Shown: piece after piece, positions 9,710-22,027 of the stretch
Numbering within the stretch: position 1 is the stretch's first letter
Layout: the number at the start of each line of letters is the position of its first letter
From: Gammaproteobacteria bacterium
GTDB taxonomy: Bacteria > Pseudomonadota > Gammaproteobacteria > Eutrophobiales > Eutrophobiaceae
Length of the DNA: 64,000 nt
NCBI GenBank assembly: GCA_965116495.1
Contig: OZ220696.1
Location: 4,011,018-4,075,017, forward strand
Direction of reading: 5' to 3'
Program-made: the position numbers and the translations under genes
The notes under the pieces: model-generated
What the model was told of the DNA's origin: nothing
Seen by the model: only the letters and a program-made list of their open reading frames with translations
The model's database searches: none

Positions 9710-10537
9710 ATGATTCACGATAAGCGTTCAACACTGTCATCCTATGCTTCCCGCTTGCTGTCAGAGGGGCGATTAGTCTTCTCGGCAGGCGAGGCCGAGA
9801 GGGCACTGGGAATCAGTAGGGGCGCGTTTCTGGACGCCGCCGAGCGACTCCAGCGCCGCAAGCACCTCGTCAAACCAAGACGCGGGTTCTATGTCGTGGT
9901 ACCGCCCCAGTACGCGTCCTGGGGCGCCCCGCCCCCGAGTTGGTATATTGATGACCTCATGCGGCATGAAGGGCGACCGTATTATGTCGGCCTCCTCAAG
10001 GCGGCCGAGTTGAGTGGCGCTACGCATCAGGCCGTCATGGAGTTCCAGGTTGTCACGGACAAACGGCTGCCGAAACTCCACGTTGGCAGGACTCTGATCG
10101 CTTTCTATTATCGCAAAGATCTGAAAACTGTCCTGAATGGCATAGAGGACCGCAAGACCAACACTGGCAAGATGAATGCGTCCTCCGTCGAACTCACAGC
10201 GCTCGACCTTCTGCGCTACCCCCATGCCGCCGGCGGTATGGACAACATCGTTACCGCCTTGACAGATCTCGGGCCGAAACTCAGATCACAAGAACTGGCA
10301 GAGCTTTCATCGGCGGTGGAGCGCCCGGTCATTCAGCGTCTCGGCTACCTGCTGGACCGGCTCGGACACGAGGGTCGTACCGGCTCGTTGTTCAATACGC
10401 TGTCTGGCAGCGGCGCTTTTCCGTGGGTCGAACTTGACAGCAAGGAAACCCGCCATCCTGAATTCACCTTGCCGCCACTGGAGCGTGACGAACGATGGCG
10501 CGTCATCGTTCGCCGCCCGCCGGAGATTGATGAATGA
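9710..10537 (+). CDS. abiEi: Type IV toxin-antitoxin system AbiEi family antitoxin/transcriptional regulator
   Basis: 275 aa, with an ATGA overlap onto a DUF1814/AbiEii nucleotidyltransferase gene. N-terminal wHTH-like region followed by a PRRGFYVVVP motif. Confidence 0.78.
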   Translation: MIHDKRSTLSSYASRLLSEGRLVFSAGEAERALGISRGAFLDAAERLQRRKHLVKPRRGFYVVVPPQYASWGAPPPSWYIDDLMRHEGRPYYVGLLKAAELSGATHQAVMEFQVVTDKRLPKLHVGRTLIAFYYRKDLKTVLNGIEDRKTNTGKMNASSVELTALDLLRYPHAAGGMDNIVTALTDLGPKLRSQELAELSSAVERPVIQRLGYLLDRLGHEGRTGSLFNTLSGSGAFPWVELDSKETRHPEFTLPPLERDERWRVIVRRPPEIDE

Positions 10538-11394
10538 TCCCTGTGATGAACATCATTGCCTGGGGAAATGTCGTCCCTTGGGTAGAGCAACGCCAGGTTG
10601 AGCAAGATCTCATCATAAGCCGCGCACTTGTCGAGATGTTTTCCGATCCCGGGTTGTCCCGGCAACTACGATTCCGGGGTGGTACAGCGCTTAACAAACT
10701 CCATTTTTCCCAGCCCTTTCGCTATTCGGAAGACATTGACCTCGTCAGGACCGAGGCGGGACCAGTTGGCCCCGTTCTCGATGCTATTCGAACTGCTCTT
10801 GAGCCTTGGCTGGGGCAAGCAAATTTCCGTCAAAGCGCCGTATCGCCCAGACTTTTGTTCCGGGCTGAAGCTGAAGACCGGGAGGCAGCTGCTCCGATCC
10901 GCCTGAAAGTCGAAATCAATACGCGTGAGATTGAGACGTTCGATCCGCCAGTCGCCGTTCCTTTCGAAGTAGAAAACCCCTGGTTCAGTGGAGCGGCCGA
11001 AATACCGACTTTCTCGCCCGAGGAAATGCTTGCCACGAAACTCAGGGCTCTCCTACAGAGAAACAAGGGGCGTGACCTGTTCGATCTCGCTCATGGACTG
11101 CGCACGTTTGACGGATTGAACAAAGTACGGATCGTGGAAAGCCTGGCGTTCTATCTTAAAACATCAGGCTTGAGCATTTCACGCGCCATGGCGCAGCAGC
11201 GAATGTTTGCCAAGCTCGCAATTCCCGCTTTTCTTACGGATATGCGACCGCTAGTTCCGGCCGACCGTGCCGAAACCCTGAACGAGGAGGCTACGAAGGA
11301 CGCATTCAGGCGGGTCCTGTCGGAACTAATCGACCTCATCCCGGGCGAGGATTGGAAGGTGACTCCAGACATGATTGAGCGCTTTGCGCTTTAA
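10534..11394 (+). CDS. abiEii: Nucleotidyltransferase AbiEii/AbiGii family toxin
   Basis: FRGGTALNKL ... SEDIDL NTase motifs; 286 aa; translationally coupled to abiEi. Confidence 0.85.
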   Translation: MIPVMNIIAWGNVVPWVEQRQVEQDLIISRALVEMFSDPGLSRQLRFRGGTALNKLHFSQPFRYSEDIDLVRTEAGPVGPVLDAIRTALEPWLGQANFRQSAVSPRLLFRAEAEDREAAAPIRLKVEINTREIETFDPPVAVPFEVENPWFSGAAEIPTFSPEEMLATKLRALLQRNKGRDLFDLAHGLRTFDGLNKVRIVESLAFYLKTSGLSISRAMAQQRMFAKLAIPAFLTDMRPLVPADRAETLNEEATKDAFRRVLSELIDLIPGEDWKVTPDMIERFAL

Positions 11395-11596
11395 ATCCGG
11401 GGATGCTGTATTTGCCGTCCTGTGTCTGGAGGGACAGAGTGCATTGATGGAAGGGGCCAGACGATGAGATTAAATGGATTACCCATCTACGGCGAGAACA
11501 TCAGTGCATAACAGATAGCGGAAAATTGTAATATTCCGTCTAATATATGCCAGCAATCGAACTATACTGGTACATCCCTGAACCACTTATTTTCAT

Positions 11597-11857
11597 TTGG
11601 GGTGCAACATGGCGGGAAAAGCATTTGTCGGCGTTGCCAAACTGTTCATGAATGGTCGCAGTCAGGCTGTGAGGTTGCCGGCTGAATGCAGGTTCGATAC
11701 AGACGAAGTCACTATCCAGAAACTGGGCAATACTGTGATCATCAGCCCGAAGACAAATCGCTGGGATGAATTTTTTGCAAGAGAGGCCCTGCCAGAAGAC
11801 GAACGAATTCCGGATATCGAGGAGATGGAGTATGAGCAACGGGAAGTCTTTAACTGA
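11597..11857 (+). CDS. vapB: VapB family antitoxin (AbrB/SpoVT fold)
   Basis: AKLFMNGRSQAVRLPAECRF, a swapped-hairpin motif typical of VapB. Confidence 0.8.
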   Translation: MGCNMAGKAFVGVAKLFMNGRSQAVRLPAECRFDTDEVTIQKLGNTVIISPKTNRWDEFFAREALPEDERIPDIEEMEYEQREVFN

Positions 11858-11967
11858 ATGATATGCTGATCGCGTCCCATGCCCGCAGTATTGGAGCAAC
11901 ATTAGTAACAAATAATATCCAGGAGTTTAACCGGGTAGAGAGTTTGCAAGTAGAGAGCTGGATCTGA
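11857..11967 (+). pseudogene. vapC: VapC PIN-domain toxin remnant (C-terminal ~36 codons only)
   Basis: Directly after the vapB stop the frame reads NDMLIASHARSIGATLVTNNIQEFNRVESLQVESWI*, the conserved C-terminal PIN segment. The N-terminal ~95 codons are absent. Confidence 0.65.
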
Positions 11968-12000
11968 AAATTTGCGGCCCGATTATCTTTATCTCCGGTG

Positions 12001-14095
12001 TTAACCCAAGTTTACCAAGATTCACTGGCATTTAGTTGGATGTTGCTATTTTCTGCCGGGTTCGTCATCGTAACGCATTGATTTTTGGTGAGTGACGGGT
12101 TGTCTGGCCATTGTAGTGCCATAATATGAATATTTATATTGACATCGGTGTGGTAGAGCGGTATCCTCTCCCCCTATGTTCATCCGCCGTACCCTCACCC
12201 GCCGTACCGACGGCCAGGCCTATTACTCCCACCGCCTGGTGCACAGTGAGCGCGCGGGCACCAAGGTGCGCCAACGCACCCTGCTGAACCTCGGCAGCGA
12301 GTTTGCTATCGACAAACAACACTGGCCGACCCTGTGCCAACGTATTGAGGCGTTGCGCCAGGGCCAGACGTCGCTGCTGGCGAGCCTGCCCGCCGGCGTG
12401 GAGAGTGCGGCACAACAGATTAGCGCCCAACTGCTGGCCCGGTCTCGACCGGACGAGACGGGAACGGCGCCGGCGTGGATGGCAGTCGATCTGGACTCGC
12501 TGGCCTTGACCCGCCCGCGCAGCGTGGGCGTGGAGCAGGTGGGGTTGTGGGCCCTGGCACAGGTGGGGCTGGACGAGTTACTCGCGGCACAGGGCGTCAA
12601 TGCATCCCTGCGCGCCGCCACCATCGGCTCCATCGTGGGCCGGCTGGCGTGCCCGGCCTCGGAGCGGGCCACCCATGCCTGGTTATGCGAGCGCAGTGCC
12701 CTGGGCGAGTTGCTGGACGTGAACTTCGAACGCATGGGCGCCATGCAGTTGTACCGGGCTTCCGATGCGCTGCTCAAACACCGTGCGGTCATTGAGACAC
12801 ACCTGTTCGCGCAGGCCATGGACTTGTTTGACCTGGCGCCGACGGTCACCCTGTATGACCTGACCAACACCTACTACGAGGGCGAGGCCCACGGGCAGCC
12901 GCTGGCGCAGCGCGGCCATTCGAAAGAGAAACGCAGCGACTGCAAGCTGCTCACCCTGGGGCTGGTGCTCGATGCGAGCGGCTTCGTGCGCCGTTCACGG
13001 GTGTTTGCCGGCAACGTGCGCGAGGAGACCACCCTGGCCGGGATGCTGGAGGCGCTCAAGACCCCGCCGGGGGCCTTGGTCATTCTCGACCGGGGCATCG
13101 CCACCGAGGCGCAGGTCACCTGGCTCAAGGATAACGACTACCGTTACATCGTGGTGAGCCGGGAACAACAGCGCCGGTTCGACGTGGACGCCGCCCTGGC
13201 CCATCGTACCCGTGGGGGCGAGACGGTCCAACTGGAGCAGGTGGCCGATGCCAAGGCCGGTGAGGTGCGCCTGTACTGTTACTCGGCGGCGCGGGCCGAG
13301 AAAGAGCGCGCCATCGCCGAACGCTTCATGGCGCGCTTTGAGCAGGGCCTCAGCGCGCTGCACGAGGGCCTGTCCCGGCCGCGTACGCGCAAGCAGCCAG
13401 GCTACGTCCGGGAACGTATCGGACGCTTGAAAGCCCGCAGCCACGGCATCGGCCAGCACTATACCATCGAGGTCGACACCGATGCCAAGGGCCAACGGGC
13501 CGTGGCCGTACGCTGGCAGCGCCAGCCGGTCACCGGCTCGATGCTCACCCACCCCGGCATCTATTGCCTGCGCAGCAACCTCACCGACTGGGATGAGGCG
13601 CGGCTGTGGCAGACCTACACCCTGCTCACCGACATCGAAGCAGTGTTCCGCGCCTTGAAATCCGAGCTGGGATTGCGCCCCATCTATCACCGCACGCCCC
13701 GACGCGCCGAGGGCCACCTGTTCATCACCGTCATCGCCTACCAACTGGTCCAGGTGGTCCGCCGTCGTCTGGCCGCGCACGGCGATGAATCCTGCCGCAA
13801 CGCAAGTTGGACCACGCTGCGGCGCATCCTCGGCGCCCGTCAGCGGGTGACCGCCACGGTCCGGCGCAAAGACGGACGTACCGTGCACGTGCGCAAGGCC
13901 ACCCGTCCGGAACCGCCGCAACAGGCCATCCTGGACGCCTTGGGAATTCGTGGACCACCCGGCGGTACGCAGAAAGAGATCGTCTGAGTACAGCGTCCGC
14001 AACATGGCGCGAATGTAGTGCCATAAGCGGAATTATGTCAATCTAACCCATTGACATATAACGATTTATTTTTTAGATTGGTAAACTTGGGTTAA
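12001..14095 (+). mobile_element. IS1634-family (IS4-related) insertion sequence, apparently intact
   Basis: Perfect 18-bp terminal inverted repeats ttaacccaagtttaccaa (12001-12018) / ttggtaaacttgggttaa (14078-14095) flank a single 603-aa transposase ORF. Confidence 0.85.
12176..13987 (+). CDS. IS1634 family transposase (DDE)
   Basis: N-terminus MFIRRTLTRRTDGQAYYSHRLVHSER is typical of IS1634 transposases; 603 aa. Confidence 0.88.
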   Translation: MFIRRTLTRRTDGQAYYSHRLVHSERAGTKVRQRTLLNLGSEFAIDKQHWPTLCQRIEALRQGQTSLLASLPAGVESAAQQISAQLLARSRPDETGTAPAWMAVDLDSLALTRPRSVGVEQVGLWALAQVGLDELLAAQGVNASLRAATIGSIVGRLACPASERATHAWLCERSALGELLDVNFERMGAMQLYRASDALLKHRAVIETHLFAQAMDLFDLAPTVTLYDLTNTYYEGEAHGQPLAQRGHSKEKRSDCKLLTLGLVLDASGFVRRSRVFAGNVREETTLAGMLEALKTPPGALVILDRGIATEAQVTWLKDNDYRYIVVSREQQRRFDVDAALAHRTRGGETVQLEQVADAKAGEVRLYCYSAARAEKERAIAERFMARFEQGLSALHEGLSRPRTRKQPGYVRERIGRLKARSHGIGQHYTIEVDTDAKGQRAVAVRWQRQPVTGSMLTHPGIYCLRSNLTDWDEARLWQTYTLLTDIEAVFRALKSELGLRPIYHRTPRRAEGHLFITVIAYQLVQVVRRRLAAHGDESCRNASWTTLRRILGARQRVTATVRRKDGRTVHVRKATRPEPPQQAILDALGIRGPPGGTQKEIV

Positions 14096-14548: not shown

Positions 14549-17500
14549 TTACCCAACATGGGCTGTCTCCTTAGGCATGTGAGGCTCATTGCGATGCAGC
14601 ATCCGATAAAGCGCCGGGATCACAAACAACGTCAGTAAGGTGGATGAAATCACACCGCCAATCACCACGGTGGCCAACGGTCGTTGCACTTCCGAACCGA
14701 TACCGGTATTCAGTGCCATGGGAACAAAGCCCAGGGAGGCGACAAGTGCTGTGGTAAGCACCGGACGCAAACGTGTTAAGGCACCTTCGGTAATGGCCTG
14801 ATCCAAAGGTAATTTATCTTTGATCAATTCCCGGATAAACGACACCATCACCAGGCCGTTGAGAACAGCGATACCCGACAGTGCGATAAATCCCACAGCA
14901 GCGGAAATGGAAAAGGGAATATCCCGCAACATCAGCGCAGCAACGCCGCCGGTCAACGCCAGCGGCACACCAGAAAAAATAATCATGGCGTCTTTAAAAG
15001 ATCCCAGTGCCAGCACCAACAAGCCAACGATCATGAGCAGTGTGACTGGCACCACAATCGACAGACGCTGTGAGGCCGACTGCAATTTCTGATAGGTGCC
15101 GCCGTACTCCACCCAGTAACCCGCAGGCAGTTCTACCGAGTTGTTAATGGCGCTCTGAATATCCGCTACAAAACTCCCCAGATCACGGTCCCGCACGTTG
15201 GCGGTAACCACAACTCGGCGCTTGCCGTTTTCACGGTTAATCTGATTGACCCCTTCCATGCTCTCCAGTGTCGCCAGCTCCTGCAAGGGAACACTCATAC
15301 CATCGGATAGATGGATGGGTAGACGGAGCATGGCATCCACATCATTACGCAGAGACTCATCGAGTCGCACAACGATATCCGCACGCCGGTCTCCCTCGTA
15401 AAACTTGCCAGCTACACGCCCACCAAAGGCCGTCGCCAGTTGTTCCTGTACCTCCATTTTACTGACACCATACTGGGCCAGCTTGTCCAGCTTCGGTACG
15501 ATCACCAGCATCGGTAGGCCGGTGGTCTGTTCCGCCTGCACATCGGCAATACCCTCAACAGCCCCTATAGCAGCTTCAATAGCATCACCCAGTGTCGCTA
15601 GCATCTCCAGGTCATCTCCAAACACTTTAATGGCCAGCTCCGCCCGCACACCGGACAACAGCTCGTTAAAACGCATTTGAATCGGCTGCAAAAATTCGTA
15701 GCGGTTGCCGGGAATATCGCTGACCAATGCATCCAGCTCAGCCACTACTTGATTTTTGGGTTTACTCGGGTCGGGCCACTGATCGCGGGGTTTCAGAATA
15801 ATAAAATTGTCCGCCACGCTAGGGGGTACCGCATCGGTAGCGACATCCGCCGTACCGATTTTGGCGAAGACCCGCTCAACTTCCGGCAGGGCTTTAATGC
15901 GCTCTTCCAACGTCTCCTGCATGGCAATCGCCTGGCTCAGGGACGTTCCAGGAATGCGCAGTGCGTGCATGGCAATATCACCTTCGTCCAGATTGGGCGC
16001 AAATTCGCTGCCCAGACGCGTCGCGCCAAAACCACTGATGATAACCAAAAGCGTGGCAAGTCCAACAAACAGCCCACGATGATTGAGCACCCAAGCCAAT
16101 GCAGGCTGATACAGCGATAATGCACCACTGGTAATAACATTGCGCTTTTCCTGCACCGGTTTTTTAAACAGCAGCGCAATCATCGCTGGAACAAAGGTGA
16201 CAGACAGCACCATAGCACTGAGCAGGGCTATCACCACGGTAATGGCCATCGGATGGAACATTTTGCCCTCGGTACCTTCCAAGGCAAAAATCGGCAGGTA
16301 GACCGCGGTGATAATGAATACACCAAATAGCGCTGGTCGTATGACTTCGCGGGTTGCTTCAAACACCAATTCGAGACGTTCACGAACCGCCAGCACTTGT
16401 CCGCTGGCACTGGACTGACTTAGTCGCCGCAGGCAGTTTTCAACAATAATAATGGCACCATCAACCAGCAAGCCAAAATCCAGAGCGCCGAGGCTCATCA
16501 GGTTGGCGCTGACCCGCGTTTGCACCATGCCGGTGATGGTCATCAGCATGGCGAAGGGAATCACCAACGCGGTCAGAAACGCCGCACGGATATTGCCCAG
16601 CAACAGGAACAAAATAACGATAACCAGCAGCGCCCCTTCGGCCAGGTTGGTCTGCACGGTGGTCAGGGTTTTATCCACCAGTTTGGTTCGATCATAAACC
16701 GCCGTCGCCGCCACTCCTTCCGGCAGGTTCTCATTGATCTCCTTCAGCTTTTCAGCGACGCCATTGGCAACGGTGCGACTGTTTTCGCCAATCAGAATAA
16801 ACACCGTACTCATGACCACTTCACGCCCGTTCTGTGTTGCCGCGCCGATACGTAGTCCTTTCCCTTCACTGACCTGCGCCACATCAGCGATTCTGACTGT
16901 GGCACCATCCTGAGTGGCGAGGGGAATCTGGCTGATATCGTCGATGACTTCCGCCTGTCCGGGGATTCGCATCAACCACTGGGCACCGTTGCGCTCTATA
17001 AACCCGGTACCCTGATTGCTGTTATTAGCGTTGATCGCCGCCACCACATCGGCTTGGGTCAAGCCAAATGCCAGCAGACGTGCCGGATCAAAGGCGACCA
17101 GAATCTCGCGCTCGTAGCCACCGATGGGATTGACTTCCACCACGCCGGGCACCCGCATCAGTTGCGGGCGAATAATCCAGTCATGCACCGCGCGCAGGTC
17201 CATGGGCGTAATGGGGTGGCCGTCTTCGTTGGTGGCGCCGGGTTCGGCATCTACCGTGAACATAAAGATCTCACCGAGACCGGTGGCAATCGGCCCCATT
17301 TCAGGCTCCAGTCCACTCGGCAGTCTGGAGCGGGCGGCCGAAAGCCGCTCATTGACCAGCTGGCGGGCAAAATAGATATCGGTGTCATCGCTAAAAACAG
17401 CGACCACCTGTGACAGCCCATAGCGGGAGACCGAGCGGGTATGTGCTAATCCGGGCAATCCCGCTAACGAGGTTTCCAGCGGCAGGAAGCGCTGTTCCAC

Positions 17501-17680
17501 TTCCAGGGGGGTAAAGCCCGGCGCTTCGGTGTTGATCATCACCTGTACATTGGTGATGTCGGGTACGGCATCAATGGGTAGCCTGGTGAAATTCCAGGCA
17601 CCCAGCGCCGCCAGCGCCAAAACCAGCAGGATCACGACACCATTGCGGTGTATGGAAAACCGTAAAATCCTGTCCAGCAT
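14549..17680 (-). CDS. czcA: CusA/CzcA family heavy-metal efflux RND transporter
   Basis: 1043 aa, 12-TM RND architecture with a CzcA-type N-terminus (MLDRILRFSIHRNGVVILL) and conserved LGALDFG. Confidence 0.93.
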   Translation of the reverse strand: MLDRILRFSIHRNGVVILLVLALAALGAWNFTRLPIDAVPDITNVQVMINTEAPGFTPLEVEQRFLPLETSLAGLPGLAHTRSVSRYGLSQVVAVFSDDTDIYFARQLVNERLSAARSRLPSGLEPEMGPIATGLGEIFMFTVDAEPGATNEDGHPITPMDLRAVHDWIIRPQLMRVPGVVEVNPIGGYEREILVAFDPARLLAFGLTQADVVAAINANNSNQGTGFIERNGAQWLMRIPGQAEVIDDISQIPLATQDGATVRIADVAQVSEGKGLRIGAATQNGREVVMSTVFILIGENSRTVANGVAEKLKEINENLPEGVAATAVYDRTKLVDKTLTTVQTNLAEGALLVIVILFLLLGNIRAAFLTALVIPFAMLMTITGMVQTRVSANLMSLGALDFGLLVDGAIIIVENCLRRLSQSSASGQVLAVRERLELVFEATREVIRPALFGVFIITAVYLPIFALEGTEGKMFHPMAITVVIALLSAMVLSVTFVPAMIALLFKKPVQEKRNVITSGALSLYQPALAWVLNHRGLFVGLATLLVIISGFGATRLGSEFAPNLDEGDIAMHALRIPGTSLSQAIAMQETLEERIKALPEVERVFAKIGTADVATDAVPPSVADNFIILKPRDQWPDPSKPKNQVVAELDALVSDIPGNRYEFLQPIQMRFNELLSGVRAELAIKVFGDDLEMLATLGDAIEAAIGAVEGIADVQAEQTTGLPMLVIVPKLDKLAQYGVSKMEVQEQLATAFGGRVAGKFYEGDRRADIVVRLDESLRNDVDAMLRLPIHLSDGMSVPLQELATLESMEGVNQINRENGKRRVVVTANVRDRDLGSFVADIQSAINNSVELPAGYWVEYGGTYQKLQSASQRLSIVVPVTLLMIVGLLVLALGSFKDAMIIFSGVPLALTGGVAALMLRDIPFSISAAVGFIALSGIAVLNGLVMVSFIRELIKDKLPLDQAITEGALTRLRPVLTTALVASLGFVPMALNTGIGSEVQRPLATVVIGGVISSTLLTLFVIPALYRMLHRNEPHMPKETAHVG

Positions 17681-17689
17681 GGGCTGCTC

Positions 17690-18937
17690 CTAGTGGTCGT
17701 GCGACGCGCCGGATTTTTCGATATCGGCTTTGATGATGTAGCTGTTCTCAGTCACGTATTCTGTGCCAGGCTCCAATCCACCCAACACTTCCACCCAGGG
17801 GCCCGCTTCACGGCCCAGCTCCAGCATCCGTACCTCATATTCTTCTCCAACCTTGGCATAAACGACGGTGAAGTCACGGAAACTCTGCAAGCCGCTGCGT
17901 TTTACCGCCAGTGGCGCGTCAACGGTGTCGACTTCGATATCGCCGCGGACAAACAGCCCGGCACTCAACAACCCATTGTTGTTAATTTCGGCCAGGAATA
18001 GCCGCGCCTGATCACTGCGCAAAGCCGCTCTCGATCCACTGACGGTACTGCTCAGTGGCGCATCAACACCGTTAATCGACAGGGTTACCGGAGCGCCAAC
18101 GTTGACCTTACTTCTGTCCGCCGGATAAATCGCCAATTCGGCCAGAAGGGTATCGGTATTGGTCATTTCCAATAATGTGCGCCCGGCCGTTTGCTCACCG
18201 GCACTTGTAAATTGCTCGCTGACCACACCAGCCATGGGTGCCTGAATCGGATAGGTTTTCAGGCTCTCATTGCTTTCTACCGTAATCAGTACCTGGCCTT
18301 TGCTGACCGAATCTCCGAGGCTGACGTGCATCTGTTTGATTACACCGTCAAAGCGGGCCTGAATCTGCCGTTTGGCACTTGGGGGATAAACGAGCTTGCC
18401 ATAAACCCGGATGGTCTGATGCAGAGTGGCACTGCCAGCGGTTTCTGTGCCAATACCCATGGCTTTAGCGACGCCGTCGCCTATGAGGGTACGGCCTTCA
18501 AAGTTGTCGTATTCCCAGCGATAGGTTTTGCCTTGGTATTGCGCGATAAGGGTGACGACAAATGAATGCGGTTCGTAAATCACCGTATCGCCACGCAGGT
18601 AGTCCCCTTCGGCTCTAAAACGGATATCGTCAACGACATTGCCCAGGCGTGTGAGCTTGACCTGAAGGTCCACCGCATCGGGTGATACCGCTTCACCGTC
18701 ATCACTTACCCAGACACGAAATTCCGGTGGTACGCCGGTTTCAAAAACAGCCAGCTCCACCGCAAAATCGCCATCGCGCAACATCCAACCCCGGTGCGGC
18801 CCTTTTTCGGGTTCTGCTTCCTGAGCCCCCGACTCTGAGGCAGCGGCGGCGATTGAAGGCAGAAACATGGCGCCCAGTACTACCTGGCACACCAGGAATA
18901 ATCGTAGAGCATAGCGGTTCATAATGGTTTCTCTCAC
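17690..18937 (-). CDS. czcB: Efflux RND periplasmic adaptor (CzcB-like) with an N-terminal extension
   Basis: Signal peptide and a barrel-sandwich/lipoyl-like core. It sits between the OMF and RND pump genes. Confidence 0.85.
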   Translation of the reverse strand: MRETIMNRYALRLFLVCQVVLGAMFLPSIAAAASESGAQEAEPEKGPHRGWMLRDGDFAVELAVFETGVPPEFRVWVSDDGEAVSPDAVDLQVKLTRLGNVVDDIRFRAEGDYLRGDTVIYEPHSFVVTLIAQYQGKTYRWEYDNFEGRTLIGDGVAKAMGIGTETAGSATLHQTIRVYGKLVYPPSAKRQIQARFDGVIKQMHVSLGDSVSKGQVLITVESNESLKTYPIQAPMAGVVSEQFTSAGEQTAGRTLLEMTNTDTLLAELAIYPADRSKVNVGAPVTLSINGVDAPLSSTVSGSRAALRSDQARLFLAEINNNGLLSAGLFVRGDIEVDTVDAPLAVKRSGLQSFRDFTVVYAKVGEEYEVRMLELGREAGPWVEVLGGLEPGTEYVTENSYIIKADIEKSGASHDH

Positions 18938-18950
18938 GGTAGCGGCGTCC

Positions 18951-20255
18951 TTAGAATGTCAGCGTGGTACCGGTGAGGCGCTGAAGTTCGATATGTTGTA
19001 AATGGATCGCTTCAAAGGCACTTAACAGATCCTGTTGCGCGCCCAGTTTTTTATTCAGAAGGATGATCCACTGCTGATAACCCAGCTTGCCGGTTTCATA
19101 GGCATGCGTGGCCTGTGCATGGGCAGTGTTTAAGGCGGGGATAATTCGCTTTTGCAGCGTTTCAATTACATGATGGCTGTGTTTAATTTCCTGGAGCAGG
19201 ACATAAAGCTGCGTATCCAACTGGCGTTGCAGTGCTTCGGATTCACTGGCAAATTCAGCCTGCCTGGCCTGAAGGCTTCTGATTTTCCCGGTGCTACTGC
19301 GGTCCTTACCGAGCGGCACAGAAACACCGGCTAACATGCCGAAATCATTGCTTGCCTCCAAACGCCGAACACCAACCGAAAACTGCCACTGCGGCTTGGC
19401 CTCAATTCTGGCAAGCTCTATTTCTGATTCTGCAATACGCTGCTGGTTCGCCAGCAATGCCAATGTGGGGTTTTGTTTCAGTTGATCAAATTGCTGTTCA
19501 ACACTTCCCAGTGTTGGAATGGTAAGAAGCTCACCCACTAACCGAAAGTCATTACGCTCACCACCCCATTGCGCGCGCAACTGGTAACGCGTTGACGTCA
19601 GCACGTGCTGCAGGTCTTCGGCCTCCAATTCCCTTTGCGCCATTTCCACCTCCGCCTGGAGACGTTCGAATTCCGGGCTTTTACCGGCCTCGACCCGCTT
19701 TTTGAGGGCGTTGACGGTGCTTCTGGCCTGTTGTTGCGCCTGTCGAGCCAGCGTTAAACGCTGTTCTTCGACCAGTGTCTGAACAAATAACCGGGCAGTC
19801 TGAGCAGACAGGTCAAGCGCTTTGATTTGTCGTTGGATATCCACCTGAGTGGAGGTAACCTGTGCTGCCTGAATCCGTTGATCGATTCGTGCTCCTTGCA
19901 TTACCCAACTAATGGATAACGTAGACTGAGCGCTATCAAAGCCGTTGTAATCACCATCACCACCAAAATCTTCAATTATTAAGCCGATACCGGGCCGCTG
20001 TCCCACGCTGACTTGTTCTACCAAGCCTTGATACGCTTCGCGTTGGTGGAGAAACGTACCCAACTGTGGATGCTGTTCCAAAGTGAGTCGCACCGCTTTC
20101 TCCAGTGACAACAGGGTGGGTTCTGACTCACTCTGTGCGTGAACAGCTGAAACAGTTAGGCACATTGCAGCGAAAACGACTACAGACAACCCAAATGGCC
20201 TCATAAACCGATTGGCAATCGGTATTTTTTGCAAACTGAAAGAGCACAGATTCAT
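18951..20255 (-). CDS. czcC: TolC-family outer-membrane efflux protein (CzcC-like)
   Basis: Coiled-coil-rich 434-aa ORF. An alternative start at 20204 (MRPFGLSVVVFAAMCLTVSAVHA) gives a cleaner signal peptide. Confidence 0.83.
   Translation of the reverse strand: MNLCSFSLQKIPIANRFMRPFGLSVVVFAAMCLTVSAVHAQSESEPTLLSLEKAVRLTLEQHPQLGTFLHQREAYQGLVEQVSVGQRPGIGLIIEDFGGDGDYNGFDSAQSTLSISWVMQGARIDQRIQAAQVTSTQVDIQRQIKALDLSAQTARLFVQTLVEEQRLTLARQAQQQARSTVNALKKRVEAGKSPEFERLQAEVEMAQRELEAEDLQHVLTSTRYQLRAQWGGERNDFRLVGELLTIPTLGSVEQQFDQLKQNPTLALLANQQRIAESEIELARIEAKPQWQFSVGVRRLEASNDFGMLAGVSVPLGKDRSSTGKIRSLQARQAEFASESEALQRQLDTQLYVLLQEIKHSHHVIETLQKRIIPALNTAHAQATHAYETGKLGYQQWIILLNKKLGAQQDLLSAFEAIHLQHIELQRLTGTTLTF
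20207..20223. promoter_or_regulatory. 17-bp perfect palindrome ACCGATTGGCAATCGGT between the blaR1-like gene and czcC
   Basis: 8-1-8 inverted repeat with A/T-rich flanks. A near-identical copy lies at 21716-21732. Confidence 0.55.
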
Positions 20256-20280
20256 TCATCAGCCTTCTTGATTTAAAAAA

Positions 20281-21282
20281 TTAGTGGGAAAAAATCACTT
20301 CGATCAGATGGTGCAAGGTATCAACCCCGGCGAATGACAGGGTCATTGTTACCATCATGATCAACAGGCAGTGTATCCAGGGAAACGATCGAAATTTTTG
20401 CGGTGCCACCAAAGCTCTAACCCGCACATCAATGTCGTCGGTAATAAAATAGTTTATGCTGACCGTATTCACACTGTTCCCAGAGAAGCGCCGAATTTTG
20501 GCCGCGTTAACCAGGGTTTGGGCGACATCGAAAGCACTGTAGGATTGACTGACGTGTGCATCAGCCAATTGCTCAGTGGCCAGCGAGAACAACCGATTTA
20601 ATCGCTGTGTTATTGGCTTCGGGTAAAGCGATGCCAATAGCGCAAAAAACAATTTTTTCTGGGTATCTTTGTGCTTAATATGCGCTCGCTCATGGGCAAG
20701 AATGATATCCAGCTCCGCCTCGGTGACCTGCCCGATAAGACCGGTTGTCACGTAACACTTGGGACTTAACAGACCTGCGGTGAACGCTACCGGGGTGCGG
20801 GATTCAAGCACAATAATGTCCCGCCCAATTTTCCACTGCCTGGAATTGCTCTGAGTCCGACTACCGGGGCTCTCCTTAGAAAGGCGTGTCAGTAAATCCA
20901 GTGCGTTCAAGTGGCGAGCTGCACCTAGCCCGTTCTTAATGAACACATACGCAGTACCCAGCATAAACAGGCACAGTGCCGCTCCGTGCCAGCTATCCAG
21001 GTAAAACACGTACGGATGATGCCAGTGCACCAGTGGGGTCAGCCACAGCGTACTTTCTAATTGAAACACCGAGGGTAAAAAAATGAATAGGCAAAGAACG
21101 CTTGCTACCCAAGGTGTAACCACAAACAGCCACAGCAGTTTTTTTTGTGTAGCGGCAGAAAACAGCGTGATATGGCGAGCTATTAACGGCCAGATCAAAG
21201 CAAGCAGTGCTGCCGCTGCCAACAGCTCCATCAGCGCAATACTCAGCAGATTGAAAACAATCGCCCACTCATTAATTAGCAT
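20281..21282 (-). CDS. M56 family (BlaR1/MecR1-type) membrane metalloprotease lacking a penicillin-binding sensor domain
   Basis: HERAH zinc motif (ILAHERAHIKHKD), several TM segments, and a His-rich loop LVHWHHPYVFYLDSWH. At 333 aa it is much shorter than BlaR1, which I recall as roughly 600 aa. Confidence 0.8.
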   Translation of the reverse strand: MLINEWAIVFNLLSIALMELLAAAALLALIWPLIARHITLFSAATQKKLLWLFVVTPWVASVLCLFIFLPSVFQLESTLWLTPLVHWHHPYVFYLDSWHGAALCLFMLGTAYVFIKNGLGAARHLNALDLLTRLSKESPGSRTQSNSRQWKIGRDIIVLESRTPVAFTAGLLSPKCYVTTGLIGQVTEAELDIILAHERAHIKHKDTQKKLFFALLASLYPKPITQRLNRLFSLATEQLADAHVSQSYSAFDVAQTLVNAAKIRRFSGNSVNTVSINYFITDDIDVRVRALVAPQKFRSFPWIHCLLIMMVTMTLSFAGVDTLHHLIEVIFSH

Positions 21283-21667
21283 CGCTGTCTGCCTGACTGC
21301 GCAATTGACGTTGTTGTTGAATCAACTTTTCAAATTGAGACAGCTTATCGTCATCCAGTCCTGCCGAGAAGGAAGAAAAGGCGGCTATCAAATGGTCTTC
21401 ACCTTCACCGATAAAATCGCTGGTCACATTCTGAATCAGCTGGGCGATGAGCTCTTTCCTGGCGACCTTAGCGCGATAATAGTAGGCATGCCCCTGCTTC
21501 TGACGGGTGAGCAGATCTTTTTTGAACAGTCTGTCCAGAGTGCTCTGAATGGTATTAAGTGTGCCACCCCGGCGCTTGGTTAATGCTGTATGCGTCTGTT
21601 TGGCATCGGCCTCTGTCGCCTCCCACAAGTACTGCAGAACGCGTTTTTCTAATTCACCCAATATCAC
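21272..21667 (-). CDS. BlaI/MecI/CopY family transcriptional repressor
   Basis: 131-aa winged-helix protein (LGELEKRVLQYLWE...TLNTIQSTLDRLFKKDLLTR) overlapping the start of the M56 gene. Confidence 0.85.
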   Translation of the reverse strand: MILGELEKRVLQYLWEATEADAKQTHTALTKRRGGTLNTIQSTLDRLFKKDLLTRQKQGHAYYYRAKVARKELIAQLIQNVTSDFIGEGEDHLIAAFSSFSAGLDDDKLSQFEKLIQQQRQLRSQADSDAN

Positions 21668-21715
21668 AATACAGCTTTCCTAAGTGTTAACCGGAGCTTA
21701 TATTAGCATACAAAT

Positions 21716-21732
21716 ACCGATAGGCAATCGGT
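21716..21732. promoter_or_regulatory. 17-bp palindrome ACCGATAGGCAATCGGT upstream of the blaI-like gene, overlapping a candidate sigma70 promoter
   Basis: The sense strand reads TTGCCT-16 nt-TAATAT, with the -35 inside the palindrome, about 50 bp upstream of the GTG start. Confidence 0.55.
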
Positions 21733-22027
21733 TTTTCTTGATTGCTTATATTTTAAACAAGGGGCACGCGATGGGAATGGGTCAGGCTGTACAAAATTGG
21801 AGGGAGGGAACCTAAATACGTTGGGTAAATTGTGGGTATTGAAAAGATGGTGTTGAATAAAACTTGGTACAATCAAGAGGTTGTAAATCTAGTTCTACTC
21901 CCCCTCCAGGAACATCTGAATAATGTCGATCTGGTAATGCCGAAGGAATCGACTTCAAAAACCAAACTGGGACTTGTCTTGCCGTTTGCGATCTTCCCCC
22001 TCGTCCAGCAAGCTGCCTGATCCAGAC

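Follow-up and report, generated by a model that had tools for sequence, protein, structure and literature searches.

The subject of this analysis is a block of five genes in a 64,000-nucleotide stretch (the window) of contig OZ220696.1 from a marine gammaproteobacterium, in which a heavy-metal efflux operon, czcCBA, is headed by a repressor of the BlaI/MecI/CopY family and a membrane zinc protease of the BlaR1 type. In the protease the penicillin-binding sensor domain of BlaR1 is replaced by invariant histidines that are predicted to face outwards, and from this replacement it would seem that the pump is probably switched on when extracytoplasmic metal makes the protease cut the repressor. The chain of events as a whole, from a metal trigger through proteolysis to derepression of the czc pump, seems to us rather likely. 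An initial annotation, made from the sequence alone, had put forward the same interpretation, which is supported by all of the comparative evidence that we obtained.

Reading along the minus strand, the order of the genes is repressor (21667..21272, 131 amino acids), protease (21282..20281, 333 amino acids), czcC (20255..18951), czcB (18937..17690) and czcA (17680..14549). The repressor and protease genes overlap by 11 nucleotides, with the ATG of the protease lying within the final codons of the repressor gene, and czcC has a Shine-Dalgarno sequence, AAGAAGG, 7 nucleotides 5' of its ATG at 20255. The outer-membrane factor encoded by czcC matches the OEP domain (PF02321, E 1.9e-23), while the periplasmic adaptor encoded by czcB matches HlyD_3 and HlyD_D23, together with the CzcB/NccB model TIGR00999 at an E value of 1.5e-25, under the cut-off of that model. 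The permease encoded by czcA scores 1418 bits against the CusA/CzcA model TIGR00914, for which the curated cut-off is 701, and is the sole permease of the heavy-metal efflux (HME) class of the resistance-nodulation-division (RND) superfamily over that cut-off in the genome; with genes for an outer-membrane factor and an adaptor beside it, the pump is of the HME-RND, CzcCBA type. Residues 401-415 of the permease, DFGLLVDGAIIIVEN, fit the motif DFGX3DGAX3VEN of transmembrane helix 4 (TM4), which Nies reportedly described in 2003 as the mark of the Zn/Co/Cd and Ni/Co classes of HME-RND proteins. No two-component, extracytoplasmic function (ECF) sigma factor or MerR genes were found within or beside the five-gene block on inspection of its open reading frames (ORFs) and domains. 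The overlapping repressor and protease genes, and their place directly upstream of czcC-czcB-czcA on the same strand, had been described in the initial annotation and are borne out by these domain matches and by those of the regulator pair given below.

The protease matches both Peptidase_M56 (PF05569, 37.6 bits against a cut-off of 31) and the M48 family (PF01435, 43 bits). Its HExxH motif occupies residues 197-201, and the full catalytic set, His197-Glu198-x-x-His201, Asp206 and Glu237-xxx-Asp241, matches H201ExxH, D210 and E242xxxD246 of BlaR1, with Arg287 matching R293/R294. His197, Glu198, His201, Asp206, Glu237, Asp241 and Arg287 are invariant in 22 homologues down to 28% identity and the catalytic residues are also invariant in a set of 68 sequences; judged from these alignments, the active site is intact. 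A model calculated with AlphaFold2 (AF2) from the 68-sequence alignment has a predicted local distance difference test score (pLDDT) of 84 and a predicted template modelling score of 0.84. Its helices span residues 5-38, 43-72, 98-137 and 302-332, the last of which passes straight through the HHLIE tail. When the model was compared with the PDB using Foldseek, the six best matches were all chains from electron cryo-microscopy structures of Staphylococcus aureus BlaR1 (8exs, 8ext, 8exq, 8exp and 8exr), ahead of Ste24/ZMPSTE24 and HtpX. The protein has what defines the N-terminal part of BlaR1 and MecR1, namely four TM helices, a gluzincin fold and the HExxH...ExxxD signature. No penicillin-binding or transpeptidase sensor domain was found in it by Pfam, as the initial annotation had also concluded, the polypeptide ending 14 residues past the last membrane helix, and it scores 17.6 bits against the generic blaR1 model NF000326, for which the cut-off is 400. 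Since the sensor domain was sought and is absent, the protease is not a BlaR1 or MecR1 in the strict sense.

Two histidine-rich strings stand out in the protease, LVHWHHPYVFYLDSWH at residues 84-99 (20986-21033) and TLHHLIEVIFSH at the C-terminus (20284-20319), and both had been picked out in the initial annotation. The first falls in the loop between TM2 and TM3 (20986..21027, minus strand), the equivalent of the loop termed EL1 or L2 in BlaR1, and contains H86-W-H88-H89...S97-W98-H99; we propose it as a periplasmic metal-binding element. The second is the tail that follows TM4 (20284..20322, minus strand), D321-TL-H324-H325-LI-E328-VIFS-H333, which is proposed to form the other half of the metal site. 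His86, Trp87, His88, His89, Ser97, Trp98 and His99 of the loop and Asp321, His324, His325 and His333 of the tail are invariant in the 22 homologues. Amongst the 68 sequences each residue of the HWHH...SWH motif is at least 91% conserved, and His86, His89, His99, His324, His325 and Glu328 are present in no fewer than 66, the set extending to homologues at 21-26% identity. Altogether seven histidines and one glutamate that are not part of the active site show complete or almost complete conservation down to 22-28% identity. The invariance in the 22 homologues and its persistence at low identity argue that these motifs are not a product of chance richness in histidine, and invariant clusters of His and Glu free of Lys and Arg are typical of metal sites.

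The distribution of charge places these motifs on the outer face of the membrane. There are no Lys or Arg residues in the N-terminus, the His loop or the tail, three in the short loop after TM1 and 23 in the loop that carries the protease domain. The N-terminus, His loop and tail are accordingly those parts predicted to be periplasmic in a BlaR1 topology, which for the loop is the check that the initial annotation had proposed, and because hydropathy and charge counts give this topology the His loop can be regarded as the counterpart of EL1 of BlaR1. In the AF2 model the loop spans residues 73-97 and adjoins the N-terminus of helix 3, which starts at residue 98.

The repressor matches PF03965 (Penicillinase_R) with an E value of 5.9e-21 and 75 bits against a cut-off of 22.6, its residues 3-118 covering positions 1-115 of the 115-position profile. 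It thus has the N-terminal winged helix and C-terminal helical dimerisation domain of the family: in the AF2 model a wing of two strands separates an initial set of three helices from a second set of three, and the model matches MecI, Mycobacterium tuberculosis BlaI (Rv1846c) and BlaI over about 118 columns; by sequence the best match in the PDB is M. tuberculosis BlaI (2g9w, E 5e-10). Residues 12-102 of S. aureus BlaI align with residues 7-97 of the repressor, and the alignment ends at Phe97 opposite Phe102 of BlaI, a protein that is cut between Asn101 and Phe102. Ala96 and Phe97 are invariant in 16 sequences down to 35% identity and are located in a helix (residues 90-102) of the AF2 model. 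This would fit a conserved scissile site, though packing of the dimer helix would explain the conservation equally well. There are no cysteines in the 131 residues, and the only conserved histidine is His60, in the wing. The CopY/TcrY model TIGR02698 is still the best NCBIfam match, with 51.2 bits and an E value of 1.4e-13 against a cut-off of 121.95. Direct metal sensing of the CopY type by the repressor was rejected on the absence of cysteine and the score below this cut-off.

The putative binding sites of the repressor are two copies of a palindrome. The 17-bp sequence ACCGAT-N5-ATCGGT has two matches in the window, and even its degenerate form, ACCGAY-N5-RTCGGT, has only two matches in the whole 4.34-Mb genome, both within the czc operon. 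We compared these sites with those of 29 loci retrieved by scanning one genome per species with the HWHH motif as bait, from Halieaceae, Porticoccaceae, Glaciecola, Paraglaciecola, Brumicola, Alteromonas, Pseudohongiella, SAR86, Methylophaga and others. The first putative operator, O1 (21716..21732; ACCGATTGCCTATCGGT as read on the minus strand), precedes the repressor gene, with an A-tract and a T-tract at its sides, and is kept at the equivalent place in all 29 loci. The hexamer at its centre, TTGCCT (TTGACA in distant loci), is predicted to serve as the -35 element of the blaI-like promoter. When the 29 loci are aligned on the palindrome, an element of the form TGn-nAnnAT is found at a constant distance from it, the remaining flank being unconserved, and from this alignment we infer an extended -10 element at 21708..21700 (minus strand, TGCTAATAT), 17 nucleotides beyond the hexamer in O1. 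Repressor bound at O1 would occlude its own -35 hexamer and would therefore limit the transcription of both repressor and protease, a form of autoregulation. A promoter obtained from a consensus scan (-35 at 21777, -10 at 21750) was dropped in favour of the one conserved across the 29 loci. The same type of operator, CCGAT-N5-ATCGG, is also present upstream of blaI-like genes in far more distant systems.

The second putative operator, O2 (20207..20223; ACCGATTGCCAATCGGT as read on the minus strand), is inside czcC, about 31 nucleotides after the ATG, where it encodes K-x-P-I-A-x-R-F, part of the n-region of the signal peptide. In 23 loci its distance from the start of czcC is the same, and the ten codons that precede it are unconserved. 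We considered whether czcC might instead start at Met18, which would place O2 in the 5' untranslated region, and ruled this out, as every locus has an in-frame ATG with a Shine-Dalgarno sequence about 31 nucleotides upstream of O2 and the frame is open. No -10 element was found after O2 in the palindrome-anchored alignment of the loci. It would seem that O2 acts as an internal operator, either stopping transcription as a roadblock or forming a loop with O1, and that it may serve to hold the pump off while permitting basal expression of the sensor pair. The sense strand of O2 could also form a stem of 6-7 bp followed by three to six U residues, as might be expected of an RNA hairpin or attenuator. 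This is the less likely explanation: the arms of the palindrome are conserved in sequence, and it is the same sequence, not merely a stem, that is found at O1, which precedes the predicted start of transcription. In a metagenome-assembled genome (MAG) of Methylophaga (L026:10981-11215) czcC is missing, and a 30-codon ORF (MIKNDRLFWHKKPIHHRF...) with O2 is kept between the protease gene and czcB; this remnant suggests selection on the operator itself.

Amongst the 29 loci the blaI-like gene always adjoins the M56 gene on its upstream side. Cultured carriers represented in the set include Haliea sp. E1-2-M8, Paraglaciecola arctica BSs20135, Brumicola pallidula DSM 14239, Alteromonas alba and Alteromonas oceani. 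Same-strand czc genes are present in 28 of the 28 contigs that reach past the M56 gene, the remaining contig ending inside it, and for homologues at 22-24% identity the order BlaI-M56-OEP-adaptor-RND was seen in two cases. The initial annotation had raised the co-occurrence of the pair with HME-RND genes as a means of checking its proposal, and this co-occurrence holds in all related loci long enough to tell and extends to distant homologues. The chemistry of the loop also goes with the class of pump. At loci with an HWHH loop the permease motif is DFGxxxDG[A/T]xxxVEN in 26 out of 26, and at those with a loop containing both Cys and His (DHCxxH..HxHLC) it is AIAxGxxVDDAIxxVEN in six out of seven, which is the pattern that a specificity-determining loop would be expected to show.

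A profile search for the protease against 1.84 billion representative sequences, clustered at 50% identity, gave 141 clusters at E <= 1e-30 and 2,437 clusters at E <= 1e-10. Among the matches listed, all 117 full-length proteins are 299-353 residues long and have the HExxH motif; 110 have a tail of the form HHxx[E/D], 67 have a strict HWHH and 44 have two or more cysteines in the loop region. When 400 genomes were sampled evenly across the class, a match was found in nine (about 2%), spread patchily across families, and two genomes of the window's own family had no match. With longer flanks, a downstream OEP-adaptor-RND set was present at five of the eight informative loci from this sample.

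In the mechanism that we propose the five genes would constitute one regulatory unit. Without metal, a dimer of the BlaI-like repressor would be bound to both copies of ACCGAT-N5-ATCGGT. At O1 it would cover the -35 hexamer of the only recognisable promoter, so limiting transcription of repressor and protease, and at O2 it would block read-through into czcCBA, as a roadblock or by looping to O1. The M56 protein would sit in the inner membrane with its N-terminus, TM2-TM3 loop and C-terminal tail in the periplasm and its gluzincin domain in the cytoplasm. The tail (HHxxE...H) and the loop (HWHH...SWH) would together form a periplasmic His/Glu site for a divalent cation; judged by the class of the pump and the all-His chemistry, the candidates would be Zn, Co, Ni or Cd. 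Once bound, the metal would hold loop and tail together and displace helix 3, which leads straight from the loop into the protease domain, and this movement would activate the cytoplasmic gluzincin site. Cleavage of the repressor by the activated protease would follow, within the dimerisation helix and at Ala96-Phe97 or close to it. The cut repressor would leave both operators, allowing the whole operon to be transcribed and the pump to be made.

The system that appears to work most like this one is PetRP of Synechocystis sp. PCC 6803, consisting of PetR and PetP (Slr0240/Slr0241; Garcia-Canas et al., bioRxiv 10.1101/2020.07.31.226407), a likeness that we draw from its published description. 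PetR, a BlaI/CopY-type regulator, is degraded in vivo and in extracts only when both PetP and copper are present, and two conserved methionines of PetP, Met53 and Met58, in the TM2-TM3 loop, which the authors describe as the signalling element of BlaR, are the proposed copper ligands (bioRxiv 10.1101/2020.07.31.226407). Both systems combine a regulator without the Cys motif of CopY with a sensor-less M48/M56 membrane protease, an operator, putative here, that is an inverted repeat with a 5-nucleotide spacer, and candidate ligands in the TM2-TM3 loop. They differ in that PetRP answers to copper, where divalent cations are presumed here, and its output is a switch between plastocyanin and cytochrome c6, involving four genes, rather than a resistance pump. 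The proposed ligands in PetP are two methionines, whereas the candidates in the window protease are the His cluster and the HHxxE tail. The PetR operator is GAC-N5-GTC as opposed to CCGAT-N5-ATCGG here, where there are two putative operators, and PetR also activates a promoter. Given this precedent, which the initial annotation did not mention, the principle of a metal-dependent protease-repressor pair is not new; its connection to a czc pump through a protease with a His loop and an HHxxE tail is a variant that has yet to be characterised. No characterised control of czc or any other RND pump by a BlaI/BlaR-type pair was found in the literature searched, the coverage of which was incomplete, in agreement with the statement of the initial annotation that no such circuit had been characterised for czc-type pumps.

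BlaR1/BlaI and MecR1/MecI of Staphylococcus and Bacillus share with the window pair the same protein families, adjacent genes, the four TM helices and gluzincin fold and the matching catalytic residues. In BlaR1, EL1 occupies the active site of the sensor domain until the antibiotic displaces it, and helix 3 connects this loop with the protease (Alexander et al., Nature 2023, PMC9834060). The probable signalling path here would likewise pass through the extracellular TM2-TM3 loop and helix 3, and the repressor, like BlaI, has a conserved x-Phe at the aligned cleavage position. Unlike BlaR1, the window protease has a 14-residue His/Glu tail in place of the penicillin-binding sensor domain; the signal is presumed to be a metal ion rather than acylation by a β-lactam, the genes controlled would be those of an RND efflux operon, the putative operators are of another sequence and the host is a Gram-negative marine gammaproteobacterium. 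M. tuberculosis BlaI, Rv1846c, is not only the closest PDB entry to the repressor by sequence but is also among its top fold matches. Its BlaR partner, Rv1845c, is likewise without a sensor domain, and the pair is linked to β-lactamase and other genes and is not known to be linked to a metal pump. CopY and TcrY of Firmicutes resemble the window repressor in belonging to the PF03965 winged-helix family and in controlling metal export genes, but CopY senses metal directly through a C-terminal CxCx4CxC motif, with no protease, and the window repressor lacks Cys altogether. For the HME-RND pumps of Cupriavidus metallidurans, periplasmic metal is sensed by the two-component system CzcRS and by CnrYXH, which comprises a sensor, an anti-sigma factor and an ECF sigma factor. 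CnrX binds Ni or Co through His and Glu ligands and passes the signal across the membrane. The protein families of these systems and their logic, phosphorelay or sigma release, are unrelated to those of the window pair.

Other explanations of the same genes can be weighed against the metal-triggered switch. It could be that the repressor senses cytoplasmic metal in the manner of CopY and that the protease only turns over released or metal-bound repressor, or tunes its level, the histidines being structural or otherwise regulatory. The Pfam family that the repressor shares with CopY and its best NCBIfam match, the CopY/TcrY model, would both be in keeping with this, and the authors of the PetRP study were unable to exclude metal binding by PetR (bioRxiv 10.1101/2020.07.31.226407). 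However, a repressor with no cysteine, a single conserved histidine (His60) and a score of 51 bits against the CopY cut-off of 122 makes a poor candidate for such a sensor, and the strongest non-catalytic conservation in the pair is in the predicted periplasmic histidines of the protease. We consider this explanation quite improbable. It would seem still more so, to the point of being very hard to credit, that the M56/M48 protein is a quality-control protease of the HtpX/Ste24 kind that serves the pump or the envelope and does not act on the repressor, which would respond to some other ligand. An overlapping, co-oriented pairing with a BlaI-family gene, the hallmark of BlaR/BlaI systems, is found in every locus examined, including the distant ones; the best structural matches are to BlaR1, ahead of Ste24 and HtpX, and in the precedent PetP acts on PetR. 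Against these stand an M48 score slightly above that for M56 (43 versus 38 bits) and weak matches to HtpX models.

A proteolytic switch might also respond to something other than free metal, such as stress on the envelope or membrane, misfolding of a protein in the periplasm, or contact with either the loaded pump or an accessory periplasmic metal-binding protein, with the histidines holding a structural metal or forming an interface. Several relatives encode small periplasmic His-rich proteins and HupE/UreJ-like proteins beside the pair, and such a partner could deliver the signal; moreover the loop is poorly defined by AF2 on its own. The window operon, though, has no accessory gene of this sort and yet keeps every histidine, the Lys/Arg-free clusters are of the type seen in metal sites and the loop chemistry shifts with the class of pump, so that we regard a signal of this nature as unlikely.

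Several points tell against the metal-triggered switch itself, or narrow it. The topology is derived from hydropathy, the positive-inside rule and homology, and the confidence of AF2 in the His loop is low, with a pLDDT of about 60. The putative scissile bond is Ala-Phe in place of the Asn-Phe of BlaI and may owe its conservation to the dimer helix. No promoter can be recognised at O2, and how it acts is conjecture. The association between loop and pump has an exception in L054 (G271:C2:3106000-3117500), where a Cys/His loop, DHCRAHDHHIHLC, is found with a CzcA-type DFG...DGA...VEN permease, the same genome holding a second pair (L055) with a VDDAI-type permease, and shared descent could yield the same pattern. 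As the 29 loci were retrieved through the HWHH motif, they describe the HWHH clade only. Finally, the module is not tied to efflux alone, since some relatives in the wider family adjoin a TonB-dependent receptor with ZnuABC in the vicinity, or no pump at all. At one such locus, on a Joint Genome Institute metagenome contig (L033:5715-11633) and the third case among the homologues at 22-24% identity, the pair lies directly downstream of SCO1/CtaG and directly upstream of genes for a TonB-dependent receptor and a TonB-C protein, with ZnuABC a few kb away. The distant protease encoded there keeps His86, His89, His99, His324, His325 and Glu328, and the same type of sensor may control metal uptake too.

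The arrangement of the module varies amongst the relatives. In six loci of the Alteromonas group (L019-L024, of which three are named Alteromonas) the order is O1-blaI2-[O2]czcCBA-blaI-M56, as in L023:3274-11010, and the two BlaI paralogues are about 50-60% identical to the window repressor. A third, degenerate palindrome, AAAAACCGACCGGCGATAGGTTTT, follows the protease gene at L023:10980-11003, and the genes after it encode a periplasmic His-rich protein, a HupE/UreJ-like membrane protein, two more periplasmic proteins and CopC/CopD-like proteins. The regulon of the Alteromonas group may be larger as a result; a 2023 review describes the part played by BlaR homologues in marine heterotrophs, Alteromonas among them, as still to be worked out. 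In six loci (L016-L018, L021, L027 and L029) from Pseudohongiella, Halioglobus, SAR86 and unclassified proteobacterial MAGs there is a gap of about 1.8 kb between the protease gene and czcC, and no O2-like palindrome was found before czcC in these at up to two mismatches. The gap in L027 (10974-12612) contains genes for a HupE/UreJ-like membrane protein of 238 residues, a protein of 178 residues and a secreted protein of 114 residues with the sequence HEGHEH, which are Ni/Co-type accessory genes within the unit. The czcB adaptor of the window (17690-18937) has a short, His-rich C-terminal end, SGASHDH, and in the distant loci L049 and L056 the sequence is GHGHAH; these ends may be metal-binding tails.

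In the window the block is flanked on one side by dapD-like housekeeping genes and on the other by an insertion sequence transposase. Downstream of czcA, in the region 9710-13987, there is an overlapping pair of ORFs encoding 275 and 286 residues (9710-11394) and a transposase-like ORF of 603 residues (12176-13987), which fits an accessory island. The G+C content over the regulator pair (20000-22000) is 0.46-0.49, compared with about 0.57-0.59 in the neighbouring housekeeping genes and backbone, and in the close relatives L001 and L003 the upstream flank of O1 diverges no more than about a dozen bases from the palindrome. Because of this shift in G+C and the divergence just upstream of O1, the regulator-pump block looks like a mobile cassette with its edge just outside O1. 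The module is an accessory one.

Taken more widely, sensor-less M56 proteins with an HHxx[E/D] tail and a His or Cys/His loop could make up a large, as yet uncharacterised family of one-protein transmembrane metal sensors, in which the chemistry of the loop sets specificity, the operator is shared and control is exerted at two tiers. We put this forward tentatively, as a possibility that falls a little short of even. In such a family the all-His HWHH loop would accompany divalent-cation pumps of the CzcA type and the Cys/His loop those of the VDDAI type, the cognate BlaI-type repressors may share CCGAT-N5-ATCGG built around the -35 hexamer, and a second operator placed within the first pump gene would allow expression of the sensor to continue with the pump shut off. 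It may comprise about 141 clusters at 50% identity in the clade described here and up to about 2,400 in the wider family. The system is a compact one, of two small genes, two 17-bp operators, six to eight candidate ligands and one candidate scissile bond, and as it has no accessory parts it could possibly be used as a portable periplasmic metal biosensor. It also offers a natural experiment in BlaR1-type signalling through EL1 and helix 3 without a penicillin-binding domain. Heavy-metal RND pumps are textbook cases of control by two-component systems and ECF sigma factors. If the proposal is correct, it would extend the single characterised metal-dependent example, PetRP, with its copper signal and photosynthetic electron carriers, to resistance pumps and divalent cations, and a protease of this type would provide a third general route, beside two-component systems and ECF sigma factors, by which periplasmic metal is coupled to efflux in Gram-negative bacteria.

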